Assembly: GCA_041663145.1 (NCBI GenBank)
Contig: JBAZRG010000002.1
Span: 1-30,617 of the forward strand
Direction: 5' to 3'
Length of the DNA: 30,617 nt
DNA from: Minisyncoccota bacterium
Lineage (GTDB): Bacteria > Patescibacteriota > Minisyncoccia > Phycocordibacterales > PALSA-1337
The notes below the pieces were generated by a model that saw only the letters and a program-made list of their open reading frames with translations, ran no database searches and had not been told where the DNA came from. The position numbers were made by a program, and so were the translations under genes. Shown piece by piece: positions 3,948 to 30,402 of the stretch (its first letter is position 1; each line of letters opens with the position of its first letter).

Positions 3948-4019
3948 GCGCCCGTGGTGAAATGGATATCACAACGGTCTTCGGAACCGTTATTGGGGGT
4001 TCGAGTCCCTCCGGGCGCA
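3948..4019 (+). tRNA. tRNA-Arg (anticodon TCG), no encoded CCA
   Basis: Cloverleaf folded by hand. Acceptor GCGCCCG/CGGGCGC. Anticodon stem ACGGT/ACCGT with loop CTTCGGA. T-loop TTCGAGT. Discriminator A. Confidence 0.7.
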
Positions 4020-4071
4020 CTACTTCGCTCTTCACTCGCTAAGCTCGTTCAGAGCTACGTAGTGCGAGCAC
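4020..4071 (+). repeat. Conserved tRNA-trailer hairpin element, copy 1 (CACTACTTCGC...CTACGTAGTGCGAGCAC)
   Basis: Starts immediately after the tRNA-Arg discriminator base. Outer arms CACTAC/GTAGTG. Inner stem GCTCT/AGAGC. Shares its 5' and 3' flanks with copies at 5033 and 6440. Confidence 0.6.
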
Positions 4072-4215
4072 AAAAATTAGAAATATCTTTAGTTTTGCAT
4101 TCCAGAGCGAAACACTCAGGATTTGAGAGACAAAATGATGCCAATTTTGCATCATATTTTTCACGTGAAAATTACCATTGAAAAGCGAAGTGTTGATAGT
4201 GTATAATATAGATAC

Positions 4216-4887
4216 ATGAGAAAAGATAGAGAACAAGCCAATATTATGAGAAAGTCTGGAATGAGCTATTCCGAGATCAAATCTCGACTCGGTGTTCCAC
4301 TCAGTACTCTGTCTGACTGGTTTCACACCCAGCAATGGTCAAATGATATAGCTATACAGAGTGCTGTTAGAGCAAGACAGTCGGCAGCGATCCGTCTGGT
4401 GGTTCTAAATACAGTCAGGGGAGGACGATTGAAGAAGGCTTACGAAGATGCCAAACAAGATGCTCTGGTTGACTATTCTGAGCTCCGATATCATCCATTA
4501 TTTATTTCTGGTCTGATGCTTTATTGGGCTCATGGTGACAAGACCGCGAAGAGCCGAATCTCTTTTTCTAGTATGGATCCGAGCGTAATCAAGATTTTTC
4601 GAAACTTTTTGGTGAATATATGTGGTATTCAGAATATGCGAGTCCAGATACTATTGAAATCAAATTTTGATCAGGAAACTGAAATAATGGAGTTTTGGAA
4701 GCAAAAATGTGGCTTCGTTGATGATAATTTTCTAAAAAGCATACGAATTATGAATAATAAACCAATAAATAAGCCATATTTTGGTGTTTGCAATATCATT
4801 TTGAATAGTGCATACTTGAAAAATAAAATTTTACGATGGATTCAATTGATTTCTGAAGACATTGTGAATGAAAAGTATGTTGATTGA
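4216..4887 (+). CDS. Hypothetical protein with N-terminal helix-turn-helix (resolvase/transposase-like HTH); function unknown
   Basis: 223 aa. MSYSEIKSRLGVPLSTLSDWF looks like an HTH. There is a weak LAGLIDADG-like stretch (GLMLYWAHGDK) that I cannot confirm. The gene sits between two tRNA genes. Confidence 0.45.
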   Translation: MRKDREQANIMRKSGMSYSEIKSRLGVPLSTLSDWFHTQQWSNDIAIQSAVRARQSAAIRLVVLNTVRGGRLKKAYEDAKQDALVDYSELRYHPLFISGLMLYWAHGDKTAKSRISFSSMDPSVIKIFRNFLVNICGIQNMRVQILLKSNFDQETEIMEFWKQKCGFVDDNFLKSIRIMNNKPINKPYFGVCNIILNSAYLKNKILRWIQLISEDIVNEKYVD

Positions 4888-4902
4888 AATATATAGTTAT
4901 AT

Positions 4903-4940
4903 GCGAGTATAGTTTAGGGGTTTATCATATCGGAGCAGAA
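4903..4940 (+). pseudogene. Partial duplicate of the 5' half of tRNA-Gly(GCC), a tRNA fragment
   Basis: GCGAGTATAGTTTAGGGGT...ATATCGG compared with the GCGGGTATAGTTTAGTGGTAGAACATATCG of the intact tRNA that begins about 60 nt downstream. Confidence 0.4.
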
Positions 4941-4961
4941 ATTGATTGAAAAGTTAATATT

Positions 4962-5032
4962 GCGGGTATAGTTTAGTGGTAGAACATATCGTTGCCAACG
5001 ATAAAATGGGAGTCCGATTCTCCCTACCCGCA
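4962..5032 (+). tRNA. tRNA-Gly (anticodon GCC)
   Basis: Acceptor GCGGGTA/TACCCGC. Anticodon stem TATCG/CGATA with loop TTGCCAA. T-stem GGGAG/CTCCC. Confidence 0.8.
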
Positions 5033-5074
5033 CTACTTCGCTCTCACTGCGTTCGAGCTACGTAGTGCGAGCAC
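5033..5074 (+). repeat. Conserved tRNA-trailer hairpin element, copy 2
   Basis: CACTACTTCGCTCTCACTGCGTTCGAGCTACGTAGTGCGAGCAC. Flanks are identical to copy 1. The inner stem (GCTC/GAGC) differs in sequence but remains complementary. Confidence 0.6.
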
Positions 5075-5261
5075 TAGAGTCAATTTAGTAGGCAATATTG
5101 CCATATTTGTATTGCACATTGAAGGGAATTGCGTTGAGATCACTCAATGAATGGGGGATAAAGAGTGTCCGAGATAATATGGCTAAGAATCGTGAAGTTA
5201 TTAGACAAACTGGGGATAAGTCTGTGAATTAGGTTTATAAGAGACAAAAATAATGGCTTAG

Positions 5262-5660
5262 ATGCGTAAAACCATGTCTGATTTGCATACCAGAGCAAAA
5301 GGCGTAATTGGTGAAGATGTAGCTTGTAAATACTTAATAGGTAAGGGTTTTAAGCTTGAAAAGAGAAATTATCAAAAAGCTTGGGGAGAGATAGATATAA
5401 TAGCGTTAAAGGACAATACGATTCATTTCTTTGAAGTTAAGAGCGTTACAGCTGATTTTTCGGCTTATAATAACAATCATAGACCTGAAGAAAATGTCCA
5501 TAATCTAAAAGTGAGTCATATTCGGAGAATGGTAAAAACCTATTTAGAAGAATCAAAAAGGGGAATGGAAGCTGATTTTCAATTTCATGTTCTTTGTGTT
5601 TATATGGACATGAACAAAAGGGTAGCCAGGATCCGTCTCTTGGAAAATCTCATCATTTGA
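5262..5660 (+). CDS. yraN: YraN/UPF0102-family endonuclease-like protein
   Basis: 132 aa. GEDVACKYLIGKGFKLEKRN..GEIDIIAL....FFEVKS matches the UPF0102 signature. Confidence 0.75.
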   Translation: MRKTMSDLHTRAKGVIGEDVACKYLIGKGFKLEKRNYQKAWGEIDIIALKDNTIHFFEVKSVTADFSAYNNNHRPEENVHNLKVSHIRRMVKTYLEESKRGMEADFQFHVLCVYMDMNKRVARIRLLENLII

Positions 5661-5728
5661 AGTATTGTGGTCCAATATATTTGAATAATGTGAACTTTTC
5701 AATATTTATGATACGATAGGCAAACATT

Positions 5729-5801
5729 CGGAGCGTGGTGTAACGGCTAACATGCCTCTTTTGGGAAGAGGTGACTCCGGGTTCGAATCCCGGCGCTCCG
5801 A
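5729..5801 (+). tRNA. tRNA-Pro (anticodon TGG)
   Basis: Acceptor CGGAGCG/CGCTCCG with C1-G72, as expected for bacterial tRNA-Pro. Anticodon stem CCTCT/AGAGG with loop TTTGGGA. T-arm CCGGG-TTCGAAT-CCCGG. Discriminator A. It has no trailer hairpin, unlike the other three tRNAs. Confidence 0.8.
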
Positions 5802-5854
5802 CAGGGAATAGTAGCGGTTGTGTGATTGTAGTAAATAATAAGTTATAAAGATTT

Positions 5855-6289
5855 ATGATCAAAAAAATAGTCGATTTCTTTGATAAATTTGAAGACAAAA
5901 TACGAGGTGGTCTCAGTCGCTTTCCGATTCTTTATACTCTGGTTGGTGGTATTGCAATAGTTTTATTTTGGCGTGGTGTTTGGCATACGGCGGATATTCT
6001 GCAGTCCAAGGGAGGTTGGTTGGGTTGGCTCTTCTATGAGCCTACGAATCTTGTGATCGTTGTGCTTATCCTGCTCGCGACTGGTCTGTTTGTCTCATAC
6101 TTCATTGGCGACACTATCCTTATCAGTGGGATGAAGGGTGAAAAGAAATTGGCAGAAAAGACTGAGAGGGAAGTGAAAGAAGAGGAGCAGAAGATAAAAG
6201 AACTACGTGAGACTATTGTAGCTATGAAAAAAGAAGTGGATGAGATCAAAGATATTGTGACAGAGAAGAAAGATGATCAGCAACAGTAA
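5855..6289 (+). CDS. Hypothetical membrane protein (two TM helices plus charged coiled-coil tail)
   Basis: 144 aa. Hydrophobic segments (ILYTLVGGIAIVLFW, LVIVVLILLATGLFVSYFI) are followed by a KE-rich C-terminus. Confidence 0.5.
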   Translation: MIKKIVDFFDKFEDKIRGGLSRFPILYTLVGGIAIVLFWRGVWHTADILQSKGGWLGWLFYEPTNLVIVVLILLATGLFVSYFIGDTILISGMKGEKKLAEKTEREVKEEEQKIKELRETIVAMKKEVDEIKDIVTEKKDDQQQ

Positions 6290-6368
6290 ATTGGAGAAGA
6301 CTAATAGTGAAATTTTACGACTGATTTGCTAGTATGAAAGTCATCTCAGATTATATTGATAATAAATC

Positions 6369-6439
6369 GCGGGATTAGTTAAATGGTATAATAACAGTTT
6401 TCCAAACTGTGGTCGGGAGTTCGATTCTCCCATCCCGCA
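6369..6439 (+). tRNA. tRNA-Gly (anticodon TCC)
   Basis: Acceptor GCGGGAT/ATCCCGC. Anticodon stem ACAGT/ACTGT with loop TTTCCAA. T-arm GGGAG-TTCGATT-CTCCC. Confidence 0.8.
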
Positions 6440-6492
6440 CTACTTCGCAACTCGGCTATTCGCCGAGTTGCTTCGTAGTGCAGGCACTTTTT
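6440..6492 (+). repeat. Conserved tRNA-trailer hairpin element, copy 3 (20-bp stem), followed by a T-run
   Basis: CACTACTTCGCAACTCGGC tatt GCCGAGTTGCTTCGTAGTG, with 17 of 20 positions paired, then CAGGCACTTTTTATAG. Likely also acts as an intrinsic terminator. Confidence 0.6.
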
Positions 6493-19247: not shown

Positions 19248-21230
19248 CTAAATAATGAATGCCACTATAAGTAGAGCAACAATATTGAGGATTTTAATCA
19301 TAGGATTGATAGCAGGGCCGGCGGTATCCTTGTAAGGATCTCCGACAGTGTCTCCGGTAACGGCTGCTTTGTGAGCATCTGAACCTTTTCCTCCATGAGC
19401 ACCTTGTTCGATGTGTTTCTTTGCATTATCCCAAGCTCCACCACCTGATGTCATAGATATAGCCACGAATAGACCTGTAACGATCGAGCCAACCAAGAGT
19501 CCGCCTAGCGCTACTGGTCCCAAGATGAAACCGACTAGAATAGGGGCTAGGACAGGAATGAGAGCCGGGGCAATCATTTCTTTTATAGCTGCTGATGTAA
19601 CAATATCTACACAACGAGCATAATCTGGCTTGGCTGTGCCTTGCATTATTCCCTTGATCTCACGGAATTGGCGGCGAACTTCCTCGACGACTTTTCCAGC
19701 TGCTTTACCGACAGCTTCCATAGAGAGAGCGGCGAAATAGTAAGGAAGAAGACCACCAATGAAGAGACCGACGATGACCTTTGGATCAGAGAGACTGAAG
19801 GTTAGATTTCCGGTAAGTTCTGTGTAGGAAGCGAACAAAACTAGGGCTGCGAGTCCTGCGGAACCAATGGCATAACCTTTTGTTACGGCCTTTGTAGTAT
19901 TGCCCACGGCATCCAAAGGATCGGTAATATCACGAACTTCTTGTGGAAGATGGGCCATTTCGGCTATACCGCCGGCATTGTCAGTGATAGGACCATAAGC
20001 GTCAATAGCGACTATGATTCCAGCCATAGATAACATGGACATTGCGGCAACTGCGATACCGTAGAGACCAGCGAAATAATAAGCTGCCAATATACCAGCT
20101 ACAATAGTGATGAGTGGCCATGCGGTCGATTTCATGGATATGGCCAAACCTTGGATAATATTCGTACCATGTCCGGAAACTGAAGCCTTTGCTATGGATT
20201 TTACCGGATTGTATTTGGTTGAAGTGTAATATTCTGTGATAACAACCAGAAGGGCAGTTACGATCAAGCCGACCAATGTACAACCGAATAGATTTAATAC
20301 ACTATATGTGCCATTCATTTTCATAAGAACATTTGTTGTAGGGTAGAAAGCAATTGCTGACAGGACTCCGGCTACAGTCAGACCTTTGTACATCGATCCC
20401 ATGATATTTTGGGATTTGCCCATTTTGACGAACCAGGTACCGATGATAGAAGCAATGATAGCTATACCTCCAAGTGCTAGAGGGTAGACCAGAGCACCTT
20501 CAAACCCGACGAATAGAGTCGCGCCGAGCATCATAGCGGCGATAGTAGTGACTGCGTACGTCTCGAATAAGTCAGCGGCCATACCAGCACAATCTCCTAC
20601 GTTGTCTCCAACGTTGTCAGCAATAACGCCTGGATTTCGAGGATCATCTTCAGGAATACCAGCTTCGACTTTACCGACTAGATCCGTGCCCACGTCAGCA
20701 GCTTTGGTAAAGATTCCTCCACCTAGACGGGCAAAGACTGAGATCAAACTCGAACCAAAAGCCAGACCGATCAAAGAATTTACATCTCCTGTAATGGCAT
20801 AAAAAACTGTAACACCCAATAAAGCCAAACCGACCACGAATAGTCCCGTAACGGCTCCACCTTTGAATGCCAAGGAAAGTGCCTGGGCCAAACCATGTTT
20901 AGCGGCTTCGGCGGTTCGGATATTTGTACGAACAGAAACGTTCATACCGATATAACCGGCTAGAGCCGAGAGAACGGCACCGACTATAAAGCCTATGGCG
21001 ATTTCAATTCCTAATGCCAACCATAGTACTATGAATAATACGACAGCGATTATGGCGATTGTGCGATATTGTCTGTTCAAATACGCTTTGGCGCCGGCCT
21101 GGATGGCTGCGGCGATCTCTTTCATCTTGTCGTTACCGGAAGGTTTTTTGAGGATGGAGTTTATTAGAAATACTCCGTAAGCAATGGCTATAAGTGAGGT
21201 TATGAGAGCGAACCATATGGTCGAATTCAT
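19248..21230 (-). CDS. hppA: Membrane-bound proton/sodium-translocating pyrophosphatase
   Basis: 660 aa. Signature [25 protein letters not shown]. Many TM helices. Confidence 0.95.
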
Positions 21231-21260
21231 TTTGATTTGATTAAATGCGCCATTTATTTG

Positions 21261-22421
21261 TTATTCAGGCGCAACTTGTAATAATACTTCATCTGTTTCG
21301 GCACCATCTCCAGCAGATTTTATATCGATTTTCCATCCTGTCAATTTTGCCGCAAGTCGGACATTTTGACCGCCTTTACCAATAGCTAGAGATTGTTCAT
21401 CTTCGGTTACGGTAACGATAGCTTTGTGTTCCTTCTCATCCAATTCTAGAGAAACAACTTCGGCAGGAGATAGGGCTTCCTCGATAAATAGGGCCGGGTC
21501 TTCATTCCATTCGACAATGTCTATCTTTTCGCCCGAAAGTTCGCTAGTTACGGTCGAAACTCGCACACCACGTTGTCCGACCATCGAGCCTATAGGATCG
21601 ATATGTGAATCATGAGAGATAACGGCGATTTTTGAGCGTGAACCAGCTTCGCGGGCAATAGCCTTGATCTCGACAGTTCCCGATGCTATCTCCGGAGCTT
21701 CGATCTCGAATAAATTTGCCAAGAATTTTGGATGAGCTCTGGAAAGTTTGAGAACAATGCCTTTTGGAGTTTCTTCGACGGCAAATAGGTAAGCTCGAAT
21801 ACGATCACCCGTTTTCCATCTTTCGCTCGGTATCTGTTCCTCATAGGGAATAACACCTATTGCTCTGCCCATGTCTATATATACAGTGCCACGTTCGACA
21901 CGTTCTACTATACCAGCCACAATCTGACCTGATTTTTGGCCATATTCACTCATAACCGAGACTTTCTCGGCTTCACGAATCTTTTGGATAATGATCTGTT
22001 TGGCTGTCTGGGCGGCAATACGTCCGAAATCGGCTTTGTTTTCGAGTGGAAACACCAACTCATCGCCCAAAGCGGCATCTCTTTTGATCTTTCTGGCATC
22101 TTCTACGAGCATGTGTTGTTCCGGATTGAAACGGATCTTGATATCATCGACATTGGCTTCACGGAGTTCCTCGTGCGCCATCTCGAGATCACCTTCCATG
22201 ATGACCTGATTGCGATCGACGACTATCTTCACCTGCCAAAATTCGACAGCACCGGAGTTTTGGTCGAAAGAGGCACGAATGATCTGGCCTTTCTTTCCGT
22301 ATTCTTTCTTATAAGCGGTAGCCAGAGCCATGGCGATAGCTTCGAGAGTCTTTTCTCGCGGTATGCCACGTTCCTCTTCGAGCTGTTGCACTACTGAATT
22401 TATTACTTTCAAGTCAAACAT
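21261..22421 (-). CDS. nusA: Transcription termination/antitermination factor NusA
   Basis: 386 aa. N-terminal domain, S1 domain, two KH domains (IGKGGQNVRLA). Confidence 0.95.
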   Translation of the reverse strand: MFDLKVINSVVQQLEEERGIPREKTLEAIAMALATAYKKEYGKKGQIIRASFDQNSGAVEFWQVKIVVDRNQVIMEGDLEMAHEELREANVDDIKIRFNPEQHMLVEDARKIKRDAALGDELVFPLENKADFGRIAAQTAKQIIIQKIREAEKVSVMSEYGQKSGQIVAGIVERVERGTVYIDMGRAIGVIPYEEQIPSERWKTGDRIRAYLFAVEETPKGIVLKLSRAHPKFLANLFEIEAPEIASGTVEIKAIAREAGSRSKIAVISHDSHIDPIGSMVGQRGVRVSTVTSELSGEKIDIVEWNEDPALFIEEALSPAEVVSLELDEKEHKAIVTVTEDEQSLAIGKGGQNVRLAAKLTGWKIDIKSAGDGAETDEVLLQVAPE

Positions 22422-22653
22422 ATATTTAGTTGTTATTGATTTTTTATTAAGTTGTGACTATATCTATTGTATCTCATGGTCAATATATCATCTAGATATA
22501 ATATATCATGCGATACCCTCTAAACTAAAATGTCCGCCGGTAGGCGAACTTCTCTAGACATGATGTAGTATACACTATTTTTTGCGTTTGTAAAGTATCT
22601 AGCTATTCACCAAGCTCAATAAGTCCAATACCTTTGAATCATTACGTGGTGTG

Positions 22654-22683
22654 TTGACAAGTAGCTATTATGTGCTGTATAAT
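22654..22683 (+). promoter_or_regulatory. Consensus sigma70-type promoter TTGACA-18-TATAAT upstream of the DGR target gene
   Basis: Read directly. It lies about 135 nt upstream of the likely ATG at 22820. Confidence 0.65.
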
Positions 22684-22759
22684 TATTAAGGTAGTTCTTT
22701 GATATGCCAGTTACGTTCACCATAACAGAAAGCGTCTCAAAACTGAGGCATTTTCCGTT

Positions 22760-23506
22760 GTGGTGAACTGTAGTAACCACACATCAACAAAACAACGTAT
22801 ACGAAAGGTAATAACGATTATGAAATCGATTACACCTGGTCAGATGGAACAGTTTGCTCGTTTTGTGACAGATGCTTCCGGTCCAAGCACGAAGACGGCT
22901 CTTGAGCAGCTTCGCGACGACTGGGAATTCAGTCATGAAGGTCTTCAGCGCGCGCTCGGAAAAGGTAATCAGCTCAAATCCCGCCTTATTCCGCTTCTCA
23001 AGGCCATGATCAAGGAAATGGCGACTAATATCCAAGGATGCGTGAAGCGCATCCTTGATGGAGAAGAGATCGCCATCGCCAAAACGAGCGGAAAGGAAAA
23101 TCTCGCCCATGCCAAGGACGTTTTCACCGGTTGGGTTGATCCCGACTTCGTGAATTACGGCTGTGATGTGGAAGGGGAGCCTACCGCTCCGACACCTGTA
23201 GAGGTGTTCGAGATGGTGGAAAACGGCGACTTCGCGCGGATATTCGGTGGTTTCAATGTCAGCCTCGATCAGCTGCGTCTTTCACAGCACCAGATCAAGG
23301 CTTTCGCAAGGGATCACCGTGATAAGCTCCGCACGGAAGGATACGGGACCTTCTTCCTGTTCAAGGTTGGCGAAGAGTTCTTCGTTGCGTACGTGCACTT
23401 CTACGGCGGCGGGCGGCTCCGGGTCTACGTGCACCGCTTCTCGGACGTCAACGTCTGGGGCGCCGAGCGCCGTCATCGCGTCGTGCTCCCGAAACTGAAC
23501 CAGTAG
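22760..23506 (+). CDS. DGR variable (target) protein; VR forms the C-terminal 40 codons. The likely true start is the ATG at 22820 (228 aa).
   Basis: The C-terminus ...YVHFYGGGRLRVYVHRFSDVNVWGAERRHRVVLPKLNQ is encoded by the VR. The gene is GC-rich relative to the backbone. No signal peptide. I do not recognise the fold from the sequence. Confidence 0.75.
   Translation: MVNCSNHTSTKQRIRKVITIMKSITPGQMEQFARFVTDASGPSTKTALEQLRDDWEFSHEGLQRALGKGNQLKSRLIPLLKAMIKEMATNIQGCVKRILDGEEIAIAKTSGKENLAHAKDVFTGWVDPDFVNYGCDVEGEPTAPTPVEVFEMVENGDFARIFGGFNVSLDQLRLSQHQIKAFARDHRDKLRTEGYGTFFLFKVGEEFFVAYVHFYGGGRLRVYVHRFSDVNVWGAERRHRVVLPKLNQ
23378..23497 (+). repeat. DGR variable repeat (VR)
   Basis: 120 nt aligned with the TR at 23864-23983. 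There are 19 mismatches, and at every one the TR base is A (VR has C, G or T). All other positions are identical. AAC (Asn) codons in the TR correspond to Tyr, His, Asp, Gly and Arg codons in the VR. Confidence 0.9.
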
Positions 23507-23519
23507 GTTCACCTACTGG
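23500..23519 (+). promoter_or_regulatory. VR-proximal hairpin (CCAGTAGG-TTCA-CCTACTGG) overlapping the target stop codon
   Basis: 8-bp perfect stem with a 4-nt loop immediately 3' of the VR. Comparable to the hairpin/cruciform elements that enhance DGR retrohoming. Confidence 0.6.
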
Positions 23520-23610
23520 GTGGCACTTGCAAATTAGCCTTGAGCCTTTGGCTCTCAGTCCCTCTGATCCTTGTCAAAATTTATTTTGGCAAATCAGGGG
23601 GATTTTTTGA

Positions 23611-23639
23611 TTGAGCACAATCACCTACTGGGTTATACT
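23611..23639 (+). promoter_or_regulatory. Candidate promoter TTGAGC-17-TATACT for the TR-containing transcript
   Basis: Read directly. It is about 225 nt upstream of the TR. The -35 region is embedded in the 23-mer shared with 19177-19199. Confidence 0.45.
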
Positions 23640-23863
23640 GGAATGGCACGCATGAACGTACGGTGGCTATGGCTCCTGTGCCACGCTTGTGAAGAAATAC
23701 GTTCGGGAGTTCTGCTGGATATGTCTTGCAGAAGAGTGGATGTATTATTATCTAAACAAAAAATAATCAGTTGGTGTAGCGAACTGGAGGACTTCAAGGT
23801 CCCGAATACTATTCAATTTGTCCTGATTGGGCGGGTGGTGTACTGGATGGTCCGCTACACATT

Positions 23864-23983
23864 ATCTTCGTTGCGAACGTGAACTTCAACGACGACGGGC
23901 AGCTCAAGGTCAACGTGAACCGCTTCTCGAACGACAACGTCTGGAACGCCGAGAACCGTCATCGCATCGTGATCCCGAAACTG
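23864..23983 (+). repeat. DGR template repeat (TR)
   Basis: It carries adenines at all 19 VR-variable positions. It is translatable in the VR frame as NVNFNDDGQLKVNVNRFSNDNVWNAENRHRIVIPKL (AAC-rich). Homology to the VR ends sharply after CCGAAACTG. Confidence 0.9.
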
Positions 23984-23998
23984 CAATTTCTCTCATCA

Positions 23999-24367
23999 TT
24001 ATTTGGTGAGAGTTTTGTTGAGTGTCGATTTAGCAGACGGACTTTGAAGGCCTTTGCGCCATCCACCAAGCATCCGTCCTATTTCTTCGAGCTTTTCCGA
24101 GAGTTCTGTATATTTGTCAGTCGGCATGAGCTTGCTCTCCCATGCTAGTTGATAAAAGAATTTAAGAGTATCTACCTTCGTTATTGTTCGACCAAGCATT
24201 ACCGTTTTGGTTTCTGGTGGTAGATATATGCAAGAAAAACTAAATTCCAAAGTATCTAAGAATAAATCCTCGATCTTTTGCCCGATGCCGAGTCGTTCGA
24301 CCCTCGGAAAGTTCCTATGAATAGTTAACCAAAACTGATATGCTTCTTTTTCCTTTAAAATTACCAC
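23999..24367 (-). CDS. avd: Accessory variability determinant (Avd)-like four-helix-bundle protein
   Basis: 122 aa. C-terminal ...MPTDKYTELSEKLEEIGRMLGGWRKGL resembles the Avd and 23S-rRNA-IVS protein family pattern (bAvd ...MTPHQVETAQVLIAEVGRILGSWIA). GTG start with no obvious SD. It is encoded opposite to the TR and RT. Confidence 0.65.
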   Translation of the reverse strand: MVILKEKEAYQFWLTIHRNFPRVERLGIGQKIEDLFLDTLEFSFSCIYLPPETKTVMLGRTITKVDTLKFFYQLAWESKLMPTDKYTELSEKLEEIGRMLGGWRKGLQSPSAKSTLNKTLTK

Positions 24368-24378
24368 TGGAGAATTGC

Positions 24379-24388
24379 GGGGGGGGGG
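24379..24388. repeat. G10 homopolymer in the 41-bp divergent avd/RT intergenic region
   Basis: Ten consecutive G on the + strand (equal to C10 on the strand encoding avd), 11 nt upstream of the avd start codon and 21 nt upstream of the likely RT ATG at 24409. Confidence 0.8.
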
Positions 24389-24408
24389 TCGTTATAGTCA
24401 TTTTATTT

Positions 24409-25404
24409 ATGAAAAATAATGGGGTTTCGTACAACCATATCATATCTCTTAAAAATATCCACGAAGCGTGGCGCGAATTTGTCTCGGGCAAAAAATACAA
24501 AAAAGATGTCGCTGAATTTCTGCTCAGACTTTCGGAGAATACATATAAACTCCACACTGATCTGAAAAATAAAATATATGTTCATGGACCGTACGAAGCG
24601 TTTGCTGTTAATGATCCAAAACCGCGCAGCATCCATAAAGCAAGCGTGCGGGACCGCTTACTCCACCACGCCCTCTATCGACAACTCTACCCGTACTTTG
24701 ATCAGAAGTTTATTCATGATTCCTATTCTTGCCGTGATTTTAAGGGAACACATCGGGCATTGGACCGTTTTATGCAATTTGCCCGCAAGGTTTCGAAGAG
24801 CAATAAACGCACCTGCTGGGTGTTGAAATGTGACATACGCAAATTCTTTGCTTCAGTTGACCATTCAGTCCTCATGGCAATACTTAAAAAGCATGTCTCT
24901 GATTCTGATATTATCCGCCTTGTTGGTGGGGTAGTGGAGAGTTTTAAAAGTACTGGTCCAGGAAAGGGATTGCCGCTCGGTAATCTCACGTCACAACTCC
25001 TTGTAAATGTTTATATGAATGAGTTTGACCAATATGTAAAGCATGTCCTCAAACAGGAGTTCTATATCCGTTACGCTGATGATTTTGTGATTATGCATCA
25101 CGATCGCAAGGCTTTGCTCGAGGTATTGCCGAAGATTGAAACCTTTCTTGAATCAATTCTTAAACTACAGCTTCATCCTGATAAGGTTTCTATCGAGACA
25201 GTTTCATCCGGTGTTGATTTTCTTGGTTGGGTGCATTTTCCGACTCATCGTGTACTTAGGACAAAGACAAAGAAGAGAATGTTTACAAGAATTGAAGATT
25301 CACAAGGAAAGGAAGAAGTAGTATGTTCATATCTCGGTATGTTAAAGCATGGGAATTGCAAAAAATTGAAGTGCAGGGTCATGAAATTGACAATCACAAT
25401 CTAA
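24409..25404 (+). CDS. DGR-type reverse transcriptase
   Basis: The ORF track gives 24340, but the homologous N-terminus begins MKNNGVSYNHIISLKNIHEAW at 24409. RT motifs are present: motif 4 GLPLGNLTSQLLVNVYMNEF (the SQ form typical of DGR RTs, versus SP in group II introns) and motif 5 YIRYADDFVI. Only 331 aa, with no maturase or endonuclease domains. Confidence 0.9.
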   Translation: MKNNGVSYNHIISLKNIHEAWREFVSGKKYKKDVAEFLLRLSENTYKLHTDLKNKIYVHGPYEAFAVNDPKPRSIHKASVRDRLLHHALYRQLYPYFDQKFIHDSYSCRDFKGTHRALDRFMQFARKVSKSNKRTCWVLKCDIRKFFASVDHSVLMAILKKHVSDSDIIRLVGGVVESFKSTGPGKGLPLGNLTSQLLVNVYMNEFDQYVKHVLKQEFYIRYADDFVIMHHDRKALLEVLPKIETFLESILKLQLHPDKVSIETVSSGVDFLGWVHFPTHRVLRTKTKKRMFTRIEDSQGKEEVVCSYLGMLKHGNCKKLKCRVMKLTITI

Positions 25405-25413
25405 TTTATCGTA

Positions 25414-25567
25414 GGAGCTTGGTGAATATTGTGTATTTGCTCCTCGCAATGCGATTTGAACCCCGAACAAATTGCCCATATTAGAGTAGCTCCGTCTACT
25501 CTAATATGGTTGCAATTTGGAGTGGGTGACCTTGCGAGGAGCAAATACACAATATTCACCAAGCTCC
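25414..25567. repeat. 154-nt palindromic element: 36-bp perfect inverted-repeat arms plus an inner 14-bp inverted repeat, immediately 3' of the RT
   Basis: GGAGCTTGGTGAATATTGTGTATTTGCTCCTCGCAA ... TTGCGAGGAGCAAATACACAATATTCACCAAGCTCC. The inner repeat is CCATATTAGAGTAG/CTACTCTAATATGG. Confidence 0.7.
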
Positions 25568-25620
25568 TGTAGACTCTATGCACAGTGACTCGCGCTTGAA
25601 TTAGCGATACAATTGACTCA

Positions 25621-27369
25621 ATGTTCGTCGAAGATGCCCAGCTCTATAAATTCATACTCGACTCCGGATTGGTGACAAAGGAGGAGCTTGAGGATGCAAA
25701 AAAAGAGAGTGAAAAAACTAATAAAAGACTTGGCGATATTTTGGTTAGTGCCGGCAAGATAAATGCCGACAATCTACGTCGCATGCAAGCATATGTTCTC
25801 GGTATTCCTTTTGTCGATCTGAAAAACAAAAAGATCCCTTTTGAAACTCTGTCACAAATACCGGAACCGATCGCGAGAGGGCACAATATCGTGGCTTTCA
25901 AAAAGACCGAGGTTTCTCTCGAGGTCGCCATGCTCGACGTCAACGATCTTTCGGCTATCGATTTTATAAAGAAAAAAGTAAATCTCAAGATATTACCTCG
26001 TCTCACAGATACTGATTCGATCAAGGAGGTTCTCGTTCAATACCAAAAAAGCTTGAAGGCCGAGTTCGGAGATATCATCCAAAAAGAAACCGCGACGATG
26101 AATATGATCTCGGAAGAAAGCGGTGAAGCTATATCCGAAGCTGATTTGAAAAAGATCGCCGAAGATCTGCCGGTAGTTCGCATTGTCGATACCTTGATTA
26201 AACATGCAATATTGCAAAATGCTTCAGATATCCATATAGAGCCGATGGAGGAACAGGTATTGGTGAGATATCGCATAGACGGCTTGTTGCACGATGCCAT
26301 GGTCCTTCCAAAACAGGCAGGTCCTTCGGTCACTGCCCGTATAAAGGTCTTGTCGAATTTGAAACTTGATGAAAAACGTTTGCCACAAGACGGTCGTTTC
26401 AAAGTAGATATAAATAATGAGAAAGTTTCTTTTCGTGTATCGATATTGCCGACTTATTACGGGGAAAAGACCGTTATGCGTCTGTTACGAGAGAGCATTT
26501 CTGGTTTTACTCTAGAATATCTGACATTTCACGGTGAGAGTCTCGAACGTATTCACAAAGCACTTACAAAATCCACAGGCATGATCCTCACAACCGGTCC
26601 TACTGGATCCGGAAAGACGACGACTCTATATACGATGCTCGACATATTGAACACTCCTGATGTAAATATTTCGACTATTGAAGATCCTATCGAATATCAG
26701 ATGGCTAGAATAAATCAGACTCAGGTCAAACCAGAGATCGGTTTCTCTTTTGCTCAAGGCATACGCACACTCGTTCGTCAGGATCCGGATATTATCATGG
26801 TTGGTGAGATCCGAGACAATGAAACAGCCGCTTTGGCGGTGAATGCCGCTTTGACTGGCCACTTGGTTTTGTCGACACTCCACACAAATTCCGCCGCCGG
26901 TGCTATACCACGACTTTTGGATATGAAAGTAGAATCATTTTTGCTCGTATCTATACTAGACATCGTGATCGGTCAGCGACTGGTGCGCAGACTGACTGAA
27001 GCCAAATCACAATACAAATTGACCAAGGATGAACTGGCTGAGCTAGGTCGTCTGGTGGATTTGGAACGAGTCCTTGAAACTTTGAAGGCTGAAAAAATAG
27101 TAAAACCTAGCGATTCGTGGGAGAAGATATCTTTTTGGAAACCTGTACCGGGTGGAGATGATGATGGGTTCAAGGGTCGCATCGGTATTCACGAAGTATT
27201 GAAGATGACTCCTTCCATGAAGGATCTCATAATGAAAGATGCTAGTTCGGACGGTCTAGAAGCACAAGCTAGAAAAGAGGGAATGTTGACCATGTTAGAA
27301 GATGGGATATTCAAATGCGTTCAAGGTTTGACGACTATTGAGGAAGTTCTTCGAGTTATTTCGGAATAA
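25621..27369 (+). CDS. pilB: Type IV pilus assembly / type II secretion ATPase (GspE/PilB family)
   Basis: 582 aa. N-terminal GSPII_E_N-like domain. Walker A TGPTGSGKTTTLY. Asp and His boxes. Confidence 0.9.
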   Translation: MFVEDAQLYKFILDSGLVTKEELEDAKKESEKTNKRLGDILVSAGKINADNLRRMQAYVLGIPFVDLKNKKIPFETLSQIPEPIARGHNIVAFKKTEVSLEVAMLDVNDLSAIDFIKKKVNLKILPRLTDTDSIKEVLVQYQKSLKAEFGDIIQKETATMNMISEESGEAISEADLKKIAEDLPVVRIVDTLIKHAILQNASDIHIEPMEEQVLVRYRIDGLLHDAMVLPKQAGPSVTARIKVLSNLKLDEKRLPQDGRFKVDINNEKVSFRVSILPTYYGEKTVMRLLRESISGFTLEYLTFHGESLERIHKALTKSTGMILTTGPTGSGKTTTLYTMLDILNTPDVNISTIEDPIEYQMARINQTQVKPEIGFSFAQGIRTLVRQDPDIIMVGEIRDNETAALAVNAALTGHLVLSTLHTNSAAGAIPRLLDMKVESFLLVSILDIVIGQRLVRRLTEAKSQYKLTKDELAELGRLVDLERVLETLKAEKIVKPSDSWEKISFWKPVPGGDDDGFKGRIGIHEVLKMTPSMKDLIMKDASSDGLEAQARKEGMLTMLEDGIFKCVQGLTTIEEVLRVISE

Positions 27370-27403
27370 TATTTTTCTTTTTAAATAATCATTACACAAC
27401 GTC

Positions 27404-28624
27404 ATGCCTCATTTCACTTTCAAAGCAAAAAGACCTTCGGGCGAGATTTATAGCTCGGAAAAAGACGTGAATGATCGATACGAACTGTATAAATTGCTTC
27501 GTGAGACCGGTGATGAAGTCGTTGAATTTAAAGAAAAGAAATCAAGAGGGGGTATAAATATGGAAATATCATTGGGACGTATTACGGACCATGTCAAAAC
27601 TATTGAAAAGATAAACTTTGCCCGCAATCTAGGCTCGATGTTGCAGGCCGGACTTTCGCTATCCCGTGCTTTGCAGGTCTTGGAGCGACAGACTCGAAAC
27701 AAAAAATTCAAAAAAATCTTGGCTCAATTGATCGACGAGATCGATAAAGGTACAACATTTTCTGACGCTTTAGCTAAACATCCACGAGTATTTCCTCAAT
27801 TATTCGTCTCTATGGTCAATTCGGGAGAACAATCTGGCACATTATCCGAATCACTCAGAGTTGTCGCAACTCAAATGGACAGCAGTTATTCACTAGAGAA
27901 GCGTGTCCGTGGTGCACTCATGTATCCGGCGGTCATTGTGACGGCTATGGTTGGCATTGCGATTTTGATGTTCATATTCGTAGTACCGACTTTGATGAAG
28001 ACATTTACGGATCTCAATGTTGAATTGCCGTTTGCGACACGTCTGGTGCTCGGTATATCAAATATAATTCAAAATCAAGGTTTTTTGGTTCTGATCATAA
28101 TACTTATTATCACATCCGGATTGTACTGGTGGACGCGAAAATCAACAGGTCAAAAAATATTGCACCGTATTTTGTTGAAGTTACCGGTGATAGGCGAACT
28201 TGTTCAAGAGGTTAATACTGCCAGAACCGCTCGCACCATGTCATCACTGCTAACTTCTGGTGTCGATGTTGTAGAATCGGTAACAATAACATCGGCTGTC
28301 GTCCAAAATGTTCATTTTCGAAGAGTATTGGTTGAAGTTGCTGAATCTATAAAGAAAGGTGAATCGATGTCCAAGGTTTTTTCGGAAAATATCAATCTTT
28401 ACCCCGTATTCTTCTCTGAAATGATAAATGTTGGAGAAGAGACTGGAAAAACAGGGGAGATGCTCTTGGGAGTGGCACATTATTACGAAGATGATGTATC
28501 CCAAAGAACCAAAGACATGTCTACCATCATTGAACCGATACTGATATTAATGATCGGAGCGGCTGTAGGAGTGTTCGCTCTGTCGATGATTCAGCCAATG
28601 TATTCATTGGTAAATGTTATCTGA
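27404..28624 (+). CDS. pilC: Type IV pilus inner-membrane platform protein (GspF/PilC family)
   Basis: 406 aa. Two GspF repeats with TM segments. Its end overlaps the start of the downstream gene. Confidence 0.9.
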   Translation: MPHFTFKAKRPSGEIYSSEKDVNDRYELYKLLRETGDEVVEFKEKKSRGGINMEISLGRITDHVKTIEKINFARNLGSMLQAGLSLSRALQVLERQTRNKKFKKILAQLIDEIDKGTTFSDALAKHPRVFPQLFVSMVNSGEQSGTLSESLRVVATQMDSSYSLEKRVRGALMYPAVIVTAMVGIAILMFIFVVPTLMKTFTDLNVELPFATRLVLGISNIIQNQGFLVLIIILIITSGLYWWTRKSTGQKILHRILLKLPVIGELVQEVNTARTARTMSSLLTSGVDVVESVTITSAVVQNVHFRRVLVEVAESIKKGESMSKVFSENINLYPVFFSEMINVGEETGKTGEMLLGVAHYYEDDVSQRTKDMSTIIEPILILMIGAAVGVFALSMIQPMYSLVNVI

Positions 28625-30402
28625 TGGAATCCAATACAATGCATCCAAAAAAATCCAACGGTTTTTCTCTGGTGGAAGTTCTGGTGGGAACAGCTATTTT
28701 CCTGATAGTTGCAATATCAGCATATGGGATCTTTGCCAATGTTTTTCGCTTGGCTAATGGCAATCAGGCCAGAATGTTGGCTATACAGTTGGCAGATGAA
28801 CAATTTGAGATCGTTAGAAACATGCCATATCTATCAGTTGGTTTGACCAACGGTATTCCGCTCGGAATTTTGCCACAAAATCAGACTCTAGTACGCGGTA
28901 ACGTGACATTTGATGTCGGCATGACTATTCGTAATGTCAATTTCTCCACGACAAGCTATCAGGCCAGTAGTAAATTGGTTGAAATCACCGTAACATGCTC
29001 AACATGTCAAAATTTCAATCCGGTTACTTTAACAGGGCAAATATCTCCAGCAAATCTTCAATCAGCTGGAGATGGGGGGGCGATAGTGGTTCAGGTTTTT
29101 GATGCCAATGGTCAGCCAGTCGTCGGTGCCGAGGTGGTTATTCAAAGTGTATCTACATCCACCATTACAAATACAGATGTTACGAATAATAACGGTATTC
29201 TAAATGTTATCGGAGTGCCACCTGGAAATAATGCTTATAGAATAACTGTAAGCAAAGCTGGTTATTCGACGGAGCGAACATATTCGATCGGAGGTGCAGG
29301 CAATCCAAACCCGATAAAACCGGATGCGACGGTGCTCAATCAACAGGTTACGCAAGTCAGTTTTGCAATAGATAAATTGAGCACATTACATTTTTCCAGT
29401 GTCGGACCATTATGCAACGTTATTCCAAACGTGGAGTTTAATCTGTCTGGCGCAAAGCAAATCGGTGCGGATATTCCCAAATATTCAGAAGCTTTGTCAA
29501 CTGATACAAATGGCACATTGACTTTGAATTCCATGGAATGGGATACATATACACTTTTACCGACTGAAGCATCATATGATATTTACGGTATCAATCCTAT
29601 TAGTCCATTTGCTCTAAATCCTGACAATATACAGGAAGTTCAATTGGTCGGTATTCCTTCCTCAGGTAATAGTCTCATGGTTACGGTCGTAGACAGTGCC
29701 CTTCAATTGCCTATATCTGGAGTCGAAGTAAATCTTTCAAAAACTGGATATGATGTTACAAAGATCACTGGTCAAGGTTATATGAATCAGACTGATTGGT
29801 CAGCTGGAAGTGGGCAGATCTTATTTACTGATCCGACCAAATATTATTCTGATAATGGTCTAGTCGATACGTCAACATCGACTGGAGATATATTGTTGGA
29901 TCAGGCTTTTGGTCTATATAATATAAATTCCACAGGCACACTAGAATCTTCCACTTTTGATACAGGTACGACAAGTAATTTTTATACATTTTCTTGGAAT
30001 CCTTCCAGTCAGCCATCTTTAGCTGGAGTGGAAAGCGTGAAATTCCAATTTGCTTCAAATGACACATCGACTTCTACTAGTTGGGACTATAAAGGTCCAG
30101 ATGGTACATCGAGCTCATTCTTTACCGTACCGGGTTCATCTATAAATAATAATCAGAACGGTAAACAATTCGTCAGATACAAAGCTTATTTATCGACTGA
30201 GGTGGCAACAGTGACGCCAATGGTCTCTGATGTATCGTTTGCATATACTTCTGGTTGTATACCACCTGGACAGGTATTATTCCAGAATCTTTCTGGTACA
30301 TATACTTTGACTGTCGAAAAAGCTGGATATATCACAGTGAGTGGCAGTATAGATATCGGTTCTGATTGGCAACAAAAAAAGGTTTTACTTGAATTACAAT
30401 GA
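28624..30402 (+). CDS. Large pilin-like protein with prepilin-type N-terminal cleavage/methylation domain
   Basis: 592 aa. N-terminus ...KSNGFSLVEVLVGTAIFLIVA (G|F-x-x-x-E class III signal). Very Ser/Thr/Asn-rich C-terminal region. Confidence 0.75.
   Translation: MESNTMHPKKSNGFSLVEVLVGTAIFLIVAISAYGIFANVFRLANGNQARMLAIQLADEQFEIVRNMPYLSVGLTNGIPLGILPQNQTLVRGNVTFDVGMTIRNVNFSTTSYQASSKLVEITVTCSTCQNFNPVTLTGQISPANLQSAGDGGAIVVQVFDANGQPVVGAEVVIQSVSTSTITNTDVTNNNGILNVIGVPPGNNAYRITVSKAGYSTERTYSIGGAGNPNPIKPDATVLNQQVTQVSFAIDKLSTLHFSSVGPLCNVIPNVEFNLSGAKQIGADIPKYSEALSTDTNGTLTLNSMEWDTYTLLPTEASYDIYGINPISPFALNPDNIQEVQLVGIPSSGNSLMVTVVDSALQLPISGVEVNLSKTGYDVTKITGQGYMNQTDWSAGSGQILFTDPTKYYSDNGLVDTSTSTGDILLDQAFGLYNINSTGTLESSTFDTGTTSNFYTFSWNPSSQPSLAGVESVKFQFASNDTSTSTSWDYKGPDGTSSSFFTVPGSSINNNQNGKQFVRYKAYLSTEVATVTPMVSDVSFAYTSGCIPPGQVLFQNLSGTYTLTVEKAGYITVSGSIDIGSDWQQKKVLLELQ

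Follow-up and report, generated by a model that had tools for sequence, protein, structure and literature searches.

A probable B3-type diversity-generating retroelement in a Minisyncoccota genome, with a predicted structured leader RNA and a length-variable homopolymer beside avd

Diversity-generating retroelements (DGRs) of the candidate phyla radiation (CPR) are dominated by a single layout, in which a target gene is followed by the template repeat (TR), an optional avd gene and the gene for the reverse transcriptase (RT). This order, termed architecture B3, makes up 90% of the CPR DGR set and is found almost nowhere else (Wu et al. 2018, NAR 46:11, PMC5758913); the CPR B3 elements correspond to DGR clade 2 of Roux et al. 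(2021, PMC8144416). Their targets fall into UVR classes to which no fold is assigned (PMC5758913, PMC8144416). The stretch of DNA considered here, hereafter the window, comprises 30,617 nucleotides of a Minisyncoccota bacterium (assembly GCA_041663145.1, contig JBAZRG010000002.1, positions 1 to 30,617 of the forward strand), and very probably carries a chromosomal DGR of the CPR-specific B3 architecture, arranged as target(+), TR(+), avd(-) and RT(+) (Table 1). Gene order and strands are those of the CPR B3 elements, with which the locus also shares a single adjacent target, a variable repeat (VR) at the C-terminal end of that target, a Patescibacteria host and a chromosomal location; no architectural difference separates them. 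Three loci related to that of the window come from the RIFCSP groundwater genomes behind the study that mainly fed the CPR set of Wu et al. The element is a further example of a kind already known to abound in CPR genomes.

The evidence that carries this assignment begins with the two repeats. In an ungapped comparison of VR with TR, at an offset of 486, 19 of 120 positions are mismatched, and the TR base is adenine in all 19. The VR holds G at eight of these sites, C at six and T at five, while 13 of the 32 TR adenines are kept. Were 19 mismatches placed randomly among the 120 positions, all would fall on adenines with a probability of C(32,19)/C(120,19) = 6e-14, and the adenine-specific pattern described in the initial annotation is accordingly borne out. 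The first mismatch (23378/23864) borders unrelated flank and is possibly outside the repeat, so that 18 mismatches are secure; a repeat search delimits the pair as 23379-23497 and 23865-23983. Every mismatch occupies codon position 1 or 2 of the target open reading frame (ORF; 22820-23506), and the translations of TR and VR differ at 16 residues. The TR is also as rich in AAC codons, read in the VR frame, as had been claimed (Table 1). No second VR was found in the window on either strand with A mismatches allowed, and the TR is conserved more than the VR across related loci.

The RT matches RVT_1 of Pfam (1.9e-26) and phrog_1423 (3.5e-108); exact look-ups of the RT protein gave no match, the collection recording instead a mechanically called ORF of 354 aa. 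Among solved structures its best match is bRT of Bordetella phage BPP-1 (8ub7; E 1.8e-40), where the best group II RT gives 9e-22, and direct comparison with bRT gives 32% identity over 304 aa (E 1e-47). The GNLTSQ sequence recognised from the outset as motif 4 of a DGR RT is present within LGNLTSQ, which aligns to IGSLTSQ of bRT, and the YADD box aligns to YMDD. The NCBIfam models for group II, retron and defence-associated (DRT) enzymes all score far under their cutoffs (TIGR04416 149 vs 300; retron 60 vs 235), and Rfam finds no group II intron or retron RNA in 23500-24450, even at E <= 1. The identification of a 122-aa Avd-like protein likewise stands, on the strength of PF22296 bAvd of Pfam (7e-11; 43 bits, over the cutoff of 40) and phrog_3206, 'Avd protein of DGR' (1.3e-14), with NCBIfam NF033474 (DivGenRetAVD) at 4.5e-16 and 59 bits, under its cutoff of 80. 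It requires one correction, in that the gene is on the minus strand, opposite to target, TR and RT.

The same features could be attributed to an ordinary partial gene duplication together with a group II intron, retron or defence RT, the adenine bias being chance or a mutational artefact. Such an account can point to the sub-threshold NCBIfam matches to group II, retron and DRT models and to the many DRT models in PADLOC, which reflect only the common RT fold. It is opposed by the improbability of the all-adenine pattern, by the low scores of those same models and the absence of group II or retron RNA in Rfam, by the presence of Avd and by the repetition of the pattern in 48 loci. This explanation has a negligible probability and is effectively refuted.

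The 48 related loci belong to different species and have the same layout. Most show 9-24 A-mismatches and 0-3 others, the exceptions being one locus with 1 A-mismatch and two with 5-7 non-A mismatches. Turnover of the VR is visible in nine near-clonal contigs (>=99.3% identical, with one TR), which divide into three VR alleles, TR adenines accounting for 11 of the 13 positions that vary among these; some members of protein clusters P0078 and P0035 are also identical save at VR positions. Population heterogeneity at TR adenines, proposed as a check on the element, is therefore seen in relatives. Together, the A-specific mismatches, an RT closest to bRT, the presence of Avd, related loci of the same layout and VR turnover in relatives uphold the recognition of a complete DGR.

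The BPP-1 DGR (mtd-avd-TR-brt) provides the mechanistic reference. It is alike in its A-specific flow from TR to VR, its Avd partner, the shared RT motifs, a stem-loop directly 3' of the TR, a duplex adjoining the TR 5' end and a GC-containing 8-bp/4-nt hairpin just after the VR, the last as seen in the window copy. It is unlike in several respects. In the window avd lies downstream of the TR and is read from the other strand, making the region 3' of the TR antisense avd; BPP-1 has a 140-nt spacer (Sp) 3' of the TR, whereas a conserved structured RNA of about 220 nt lies 5' of the TR here; the identical segment resembling an initiation of mutagenic homing (IMH) site is only about 11 nt long in the window; and the BPP-1 target is a phage tail fibre, in contrast to a 228-aa protein without evident export signal and without similarity to Mtd. 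Because avd is antisense at that place, the B3 architecture cannot carry a BPP-1-like Sp.

A TATA(A/C)T-like -10 box occupies the position of the putative TR-RNA promoter in 48 of 48 loci, often in the extended form TGnTATAAT. The RNA that would follow is predicted to fold into six leader helices, and the statistics on this structure cover 61 pairs in the 48 loci, drawn from the leader helices, a TR-internal helix and the post-TR stem (terminator). Paired cells amount to 94.6%, compared with 41-53% when partners are slid, and 48 of the 61 pairs show changes on both sides. The covariation score is 0.565 versus at most 0.147, and none of 500 shuffles reached the observed values. Support for the leader structure is comparative only, and it matched no Rfam family, the Weinberg et al. 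motifs RT-1 to RT-19 among them.

Two of the predicted helices may have counterparts in BPP-1. The Avd-binding element is a stem-loop just downstream of the TR, commonly of 9 bp, and a duplex adjoining the TR 5' end is the stop for cDNA synthesis (Handa et al., 10.1101/2023.10.23.563531). With its 9 bp placed right after the TR, the post-TR stem-loop of the window fits the first of these, and is by analogy a candidate Avd-binding stem-loop and/or TR-RNA terminator; in relatives the stem has 8-10 bp, with compensatory changes. P4, of 12 bp and ending 3 nt short of the TR, is a candidate counterpart of the BPP-1 cPRT-Stop duplex. Pairing of the TR 3' end with the leader segment GTTCGGGA as a primer duplex was rejected, as it shows no covariation and lies inside P2/P3.

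The second unusual feature is the homopolymer upstream of avd. An independent Logan assembly has the identical G run, and its length in 53 related loci is G8 (7 loci), G9 (10), G10 (25), G11 (9) or G12 (2). An ATG no more than 45 nt upstream and open into the run is present in 52 of the 53 loci, where shuffles give an expectation of 31%. In 12 loci this ATG and avd share a frame; the remaining loci divide into 12 and 28 between the other two frames. A canonical in-frame avd start is lacking anywhere in 12 of 40 loci, and about half of the loci have a possible avd start codon after the run. Run length differs among near-clonal contigs in three populations: in one, G10 vs G11 makes up one of the two changes seen over 6.8 kb; in another, G8, which is in frame, vs G9, which is not, is among three differences across about 7 kb; and G9, G10 and G11 are all found in the population with VR turnover. 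It is possible that these differences are homopolymer assembly errors. A scan of metagenome DNA for a window-specific pattern spanning the G run gave no match.

Some further observations concern this junction. In L096 (1644-1656), as compared with L097-L103 (>=99.3% identical), four clustered substitutions by the C run create a GGAG-ATG avd start downstream; with such a start, run length would no longer matter. About 21 of 53 loci, but not the window, have a hairpin immediately behind the C run that might stimulate frameshifting. A TATAGT box after the G run was considered as the -10 element of an RT promoter and rejected, since the conserved ATGACTATA start on the avd strand, read in reverse complement, accounts for it more simply.

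Taken together, the run and the leader allow a tentative reading, which we consider less likely than not: Avd would be made from the upstream ATG, gated by the length of the C8-12 run or by polymerase or ribosome slippage, and the RNA scaffold provided by Sp in BPP-1 would have been relocated to the leader of about 220 nt, since antisense avd takes up the 3' side. Phase-variable contingency loci with poly-G/C runs, as in Neisseria and Bordetella (slippage, Baranov et al. 2005, PMC1088944), are alike in having a G/C run, here of 8-12 nt and between a start and the avd body, and in showing length differences among near-clonal contigs, with in-frame and out-of-frame states at avd. They are unlike in that about half of the DGR loci have a possible start after the run. 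A link between DGRs and homopolymers or phase variation was not found in the literature in one full-text search, nor was any mention of the 5' leader RNA or of the avd homopolymer found in the DGR literature examined. Both the structured leader and the length-variable C/G run at avd are apparently undescribed features of the family to which this DGR belongs.

Several observations weigh against the principal explanation, a DGR of B3 architecture acting through this RNA. With C10, the upstream ATG of the window has avd in the +1 frame and reads MTITTPPPQFSSGNFKGKRSISVLVNYS*; C9 would place it in frame. The RNA folds no better than shuffled sequence when taken singly (z = -0.76). P4 is made of two upstream strands, whereas the BPP-1 duplex is made of one upstream and one downstream strand, and no primer strand or priming site was identified at the TR RNA. 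If the RNA ends at the U run, then the primer strand, Stop strand, thumb ring and RT-binding stem of BPP-1 would be missing or supplied by the leader. Nor is there a direct sign of present activity in the window copy, as its protein cluster has a single member and the sole other assembly, a contig from SRR18595301, is identical; TR/VR divergence is the one indication of its diversification.

These last points bear on whether the cassette is a relic, with a VR diversified in the past and now inactive or mostly silent, for example if Avd is not made from a proper start. The out-of-frame ATG, the lack of a recorded VR variant for the window strain and the identical VRs shared by the near-clonal pairs L091/L093 and L086/L092 would all agree with this. 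Yet all ORFs are intact, the RT has its YADD and GxxxSQ motifs, an in-frame GTG at 24367 could initiate Avd, the TR and cis elements are conserved as well as in relatives with VR turnover, and minor alleles would be hidden by consensus assemblies. We therefore consider a relic unlikely.

The target has an exact (100% identical) counterpart, annotated 'hypothetical protein', in a Candidatus Paceibacterota metagenome-assembled genome, and has no match in Pfam, NCBIfam, PHROG, PADLOC or the sequences of the PDB. Pfam and NCBIfam give no FGE-sulfatase, DUF1566 or Mtd-like signature of a C-type lectin (CLec) fold, and comparison of the target profile with Mtd returned a probability of 0.05 and no sequence similarity. 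Among the matches listed in a profile search of 1.84 billion proteins there were only close family members, and no Pfam CLec family was linked. AlphaFold, run with the family alignment, nevertheless predicts the protein with confidence, at a predicted local distance difference test score (pLDDT) of 91.6 for the whole target, and of 95.4 for residues 70-228, with a predicted template modelling score of 0.92. On this model the VR takes in a pair of successive beta strands, a turn, a loop that includes a short helix and a final strand. The altered residues (187, 191, 193, 195, 196, 197, 199, 201, 203, 205, 209, 210, 214, 217, 221 and 223) were mapped onto it as initially suggested, and take alternate positions on two predicted strands and the next loop, with 191/193/195 and 199/201/203/205 interleaved with conserved hydrophobic residues. 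Family entropy is 2.48 bits at TR-A codons versus 1.43 bits at the remaining C-domain columns.

A CLec fold is expected for DGR variable proteins (Roux et al. 2021, PMC8144416), the CLec/FGE-type representatives for comparison being TvpA (2Y3C), Mtd, TaqVP and archaeal AvpA. On the model, the C-domain of the target is probably a very divergent CLec-like fold, which agrees with that expectation. That it is instead a genuinely new DGR scaffold, a beta-hairpin display fold unrelated to C-type lectins, seems rather unlikely. No N-terminal hydrophobic segment, signal peptide or membrane segment is obvious by eye in the sequence, read without a predictor, which makes an intracellular role possible.

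Assembled into a mechanism, these elements would act as follows. The TR-RNA promoter would drive an RNA of about 370 nt made up of the structured leader, the 120-nt TR and the 9-bp stem-loop with its U run. An RT-Avd complex would bind this RNA, the post-TR stem-loop being placed and sized like the Avd-binding stem-loop of the Bordetella phage, and would copy the TR to cDNA with misincorporation opposite adenines. P4 could halt polymerisation in the manner of the cPRT-Stop duplex. The cDNA would then replace the final 120 nt of the target gene by homology, so that up to 20 codons, mostly AAC for Asn, might be recoded (16 differ at present). Along the two adjacent beta strands and the next loop of the small C-domain, the recoded residues would form a hypervariable binding face.

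The target family is large, with at least 126 members in a collection clustered at 90% and at least 2,556 clusters at 50% identity. Among GTDB species-representative genomes, relatives occur in 102 stretches, almost all of which carry the label Patescibacteria. Many homologues of the C-domain (L008, L010, L017, L020 and others) have no avd or RT within 4 kb. P0079, a short form of the domain of 169 aa, has a VR-equivalent segment that is invariant across about 29 members, and this invariance across many contigs indicates that non-diversified paralogues also exist; one P0079 member is labelled Chthoniobacterales, which may reflect a binning error or a non-CPR host. In P0104 and P0208 an HNH_3 endonuclease domain is inserted in or fused to the protein, and P0176 and P0177 consist of three tandem copies of the target domain. 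No informative fused domain was found in the larger relatives.

Horizontal acquisition had been proposed from a locus much richer in GC than its backbone. This applies to the target (55%), VR (67%) and TR (55%), and fails for avd (40.1%) and RT (40.5%), which match the window mean of 41.1%. As GC is raised only in the former three, it is weak evidence for horizontal transfer. Better evidence for mobility comes from L001, in which a cassette 71% identical to 22759-25285 of the window is beside queuosine synthesis and sigma-70 genes, unlike the NusA and type IV pilus genes that neighbour the window cassette.

The target gene appears to be controlled by a sigma-70-type promoter matching the consensus at 12 of 12 positions, of which the -35 box begins at 22654, the start of the range given in the initial annotation. 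L001 has TTGACT-18-TATTAT at the equivalent relative position, and a hairpin of different sequence (4901-4950) at the place equivalent to that of the leader hairpin. The putative intrinsic terminator of the target is conserved in relatives, and its stem shows compensatory changes.

The initial annotation had also placed an 8-bp hairpin directly 3' of the VR. The hairpin is present and includes the target stop codon TAG (23504-23506). It lies within an insertion of about 22 nt (AACCAGTAGGTTCACCTACTGGGT) that supplies this stop and is present in none of 11 relatives compared at the VR 3' flank, which read CCGCAACTG followed by GCACTTGCAAATTAG; hence the hairpin is not a conserved part of the DGR lineage. 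According to Wu et al. (2018, PMC5758913), no more than 34% of DGRs have an inverted repeat after the IMH. The right arm repeats 23621-23633, as the 13-mer TCACCTACTGGGT is found both at 23509-23521, in the hairpin-forming insertion, and at 23621-23633, just upstream of the -10 box for the TR RNA; L004 and L007 have only the latter copy.

After the last A mismatch VR and TR share an identical, GC-containing segment of 11 nt (CCCGAAACTG), beyond which they diverge. At 23490/23976, where the TR has CCGAAACTG and the VR CCGCAACTG, the A of the motif CCG-A-AACT has become C in the VR of 11 of 12 compared loci. This C specifies the Gln of a conserved ending PQL, and the window VR retains A (Lys). 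Either IMH and IMH* differ here in a fixed way, or Gln is strongly selected.

Table 1. Features of the DGR locus, in positions of the window
Feature	Position	Strand	Description
Target promoter	22654-22683	+	TTGACA-18-TATAAT; 12/12 consensus match, sigma-70-type
Hairpin in target 5' leader	22715-22768	+	Inverted repeat; 25-nt arms, 80% complementary
Target (variable protein) gene	22820-23506	+	ORF, 228 aa; three-helix N-domain ~6-69, alpha/beta C-domain ~70-228
VR	23378-23497	+	Encodes target residues 187-226 of 228
Post-VR hairpin	23500-23519		8 bp, 4-nt loop, CCAGTAGG-ttca-CCTACTGG; 2 nt past VR/TR homology
Putative intrinsic terminator of target	23560-23608	+	CCCTCTGAT ... ATCAGGGGG, then T run; sequence reading
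TR-RNA promoter (predicted)	23611-23639	+	TTGAGC-17-TATACT; promoter scan; directly after target terminator
Structured RNA leader (predicted)	23643-23863	+	~220 nt, 5' of TR; six helices; RNAalifold, 48 loci
Leader helices P1-P3 (predicted)	P1 23661-67/23672-78; P2 23692-704/23738-50; P3 23710-20/23723-33	+	RNAalifold
Leader helices P4-P6 (predicted)	P4 23774-85/23849-60; P5 23789-92/23799-802; P6 23816-20/23832-36	+	RNAalifold
TR	23864-23983	+	32 A; 9 AAC codons in VR frame
Post-TR stem-loop	23990-24016	+	9-bp stem, 5-nt loop, then UUUU; 6 nt after TR; overlaps avd stop 23999-24001 (minus strand)
avd	23999-24367	-	122 aa; GTG start 24367; convergent with TR RNA, divergent from RT
Homopolymer	24379-24388		G10 on plus strand, C10 on avd strand; between avd and RT
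ATG on avd strand	24399-24401	-	10 nt upstream of C run; 7 nt from RT start codon
DGR reverse transcriptase	24409-25404	+	331 aa; ATG 24409; LGNLTSQ motif, YADD catalytic box

The cassette is situated between genes for a membrane H+-pyrophosphatase and NusA (minus strand; 19248-22421) and a type IV pilus block (25621-30402) that encodes a PilB-like ATPase, a PilC-like platform protein and a pilin-like protein of 592 aa, the last bearing a methylation motif at its N-terminus together with Ig-like or CarboxypepD_reg domains. An inverted repeat with perfect 37-nt arms (25413-25449 and 25532-25568) starts 9 nt past the RT stop, outside the cassette homology common to relatives, and its 82-nt spacer has a 14-bp palindrome of its own (25476-25509). 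An independent Logan contig terminates within the left arm. The repeat could be an element resembling a miniature inverted-repeat transposable element, or a large terminator. The 14-mer TATTCACCAAGCTC occurs at 22604-22617, 25553-25566 and, as the reverse complement, 25415-25428, and so forms a direct repeat flanking the whole DGR cassette, the right copy of which falls within the 37-nt inverted repeat. An insertion footprint, an att-like core or chance could explain it. Further off, four tRNA genes (Arg-TCG, Gly-GCC, Pro-TGG and Gly-TCC) lie among short ORFs at 3948-6440.

The DGR itself is ordinary for CPR and mainly confirms its recognition from raw sequence; what gives it value is the family to which it belongs. 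The target family is very large and without annotation, and the variable domain predicted for it with confidence is no more than a remote variant of CLec, making it a good candidate for structure determination that bears on whether all DGR scaffolds are CLec. The comparative data offer a concrete, testable RNA model for the B3 architecture. The length-polymorphic run between a conserved ATG and avd suggests stochastic on/off control of a targeted hypermutation system. If this is true, the target would be hypermutated only at a low rate or within a subpopulation, and the avd gene of the window would carry 'one C too many'.

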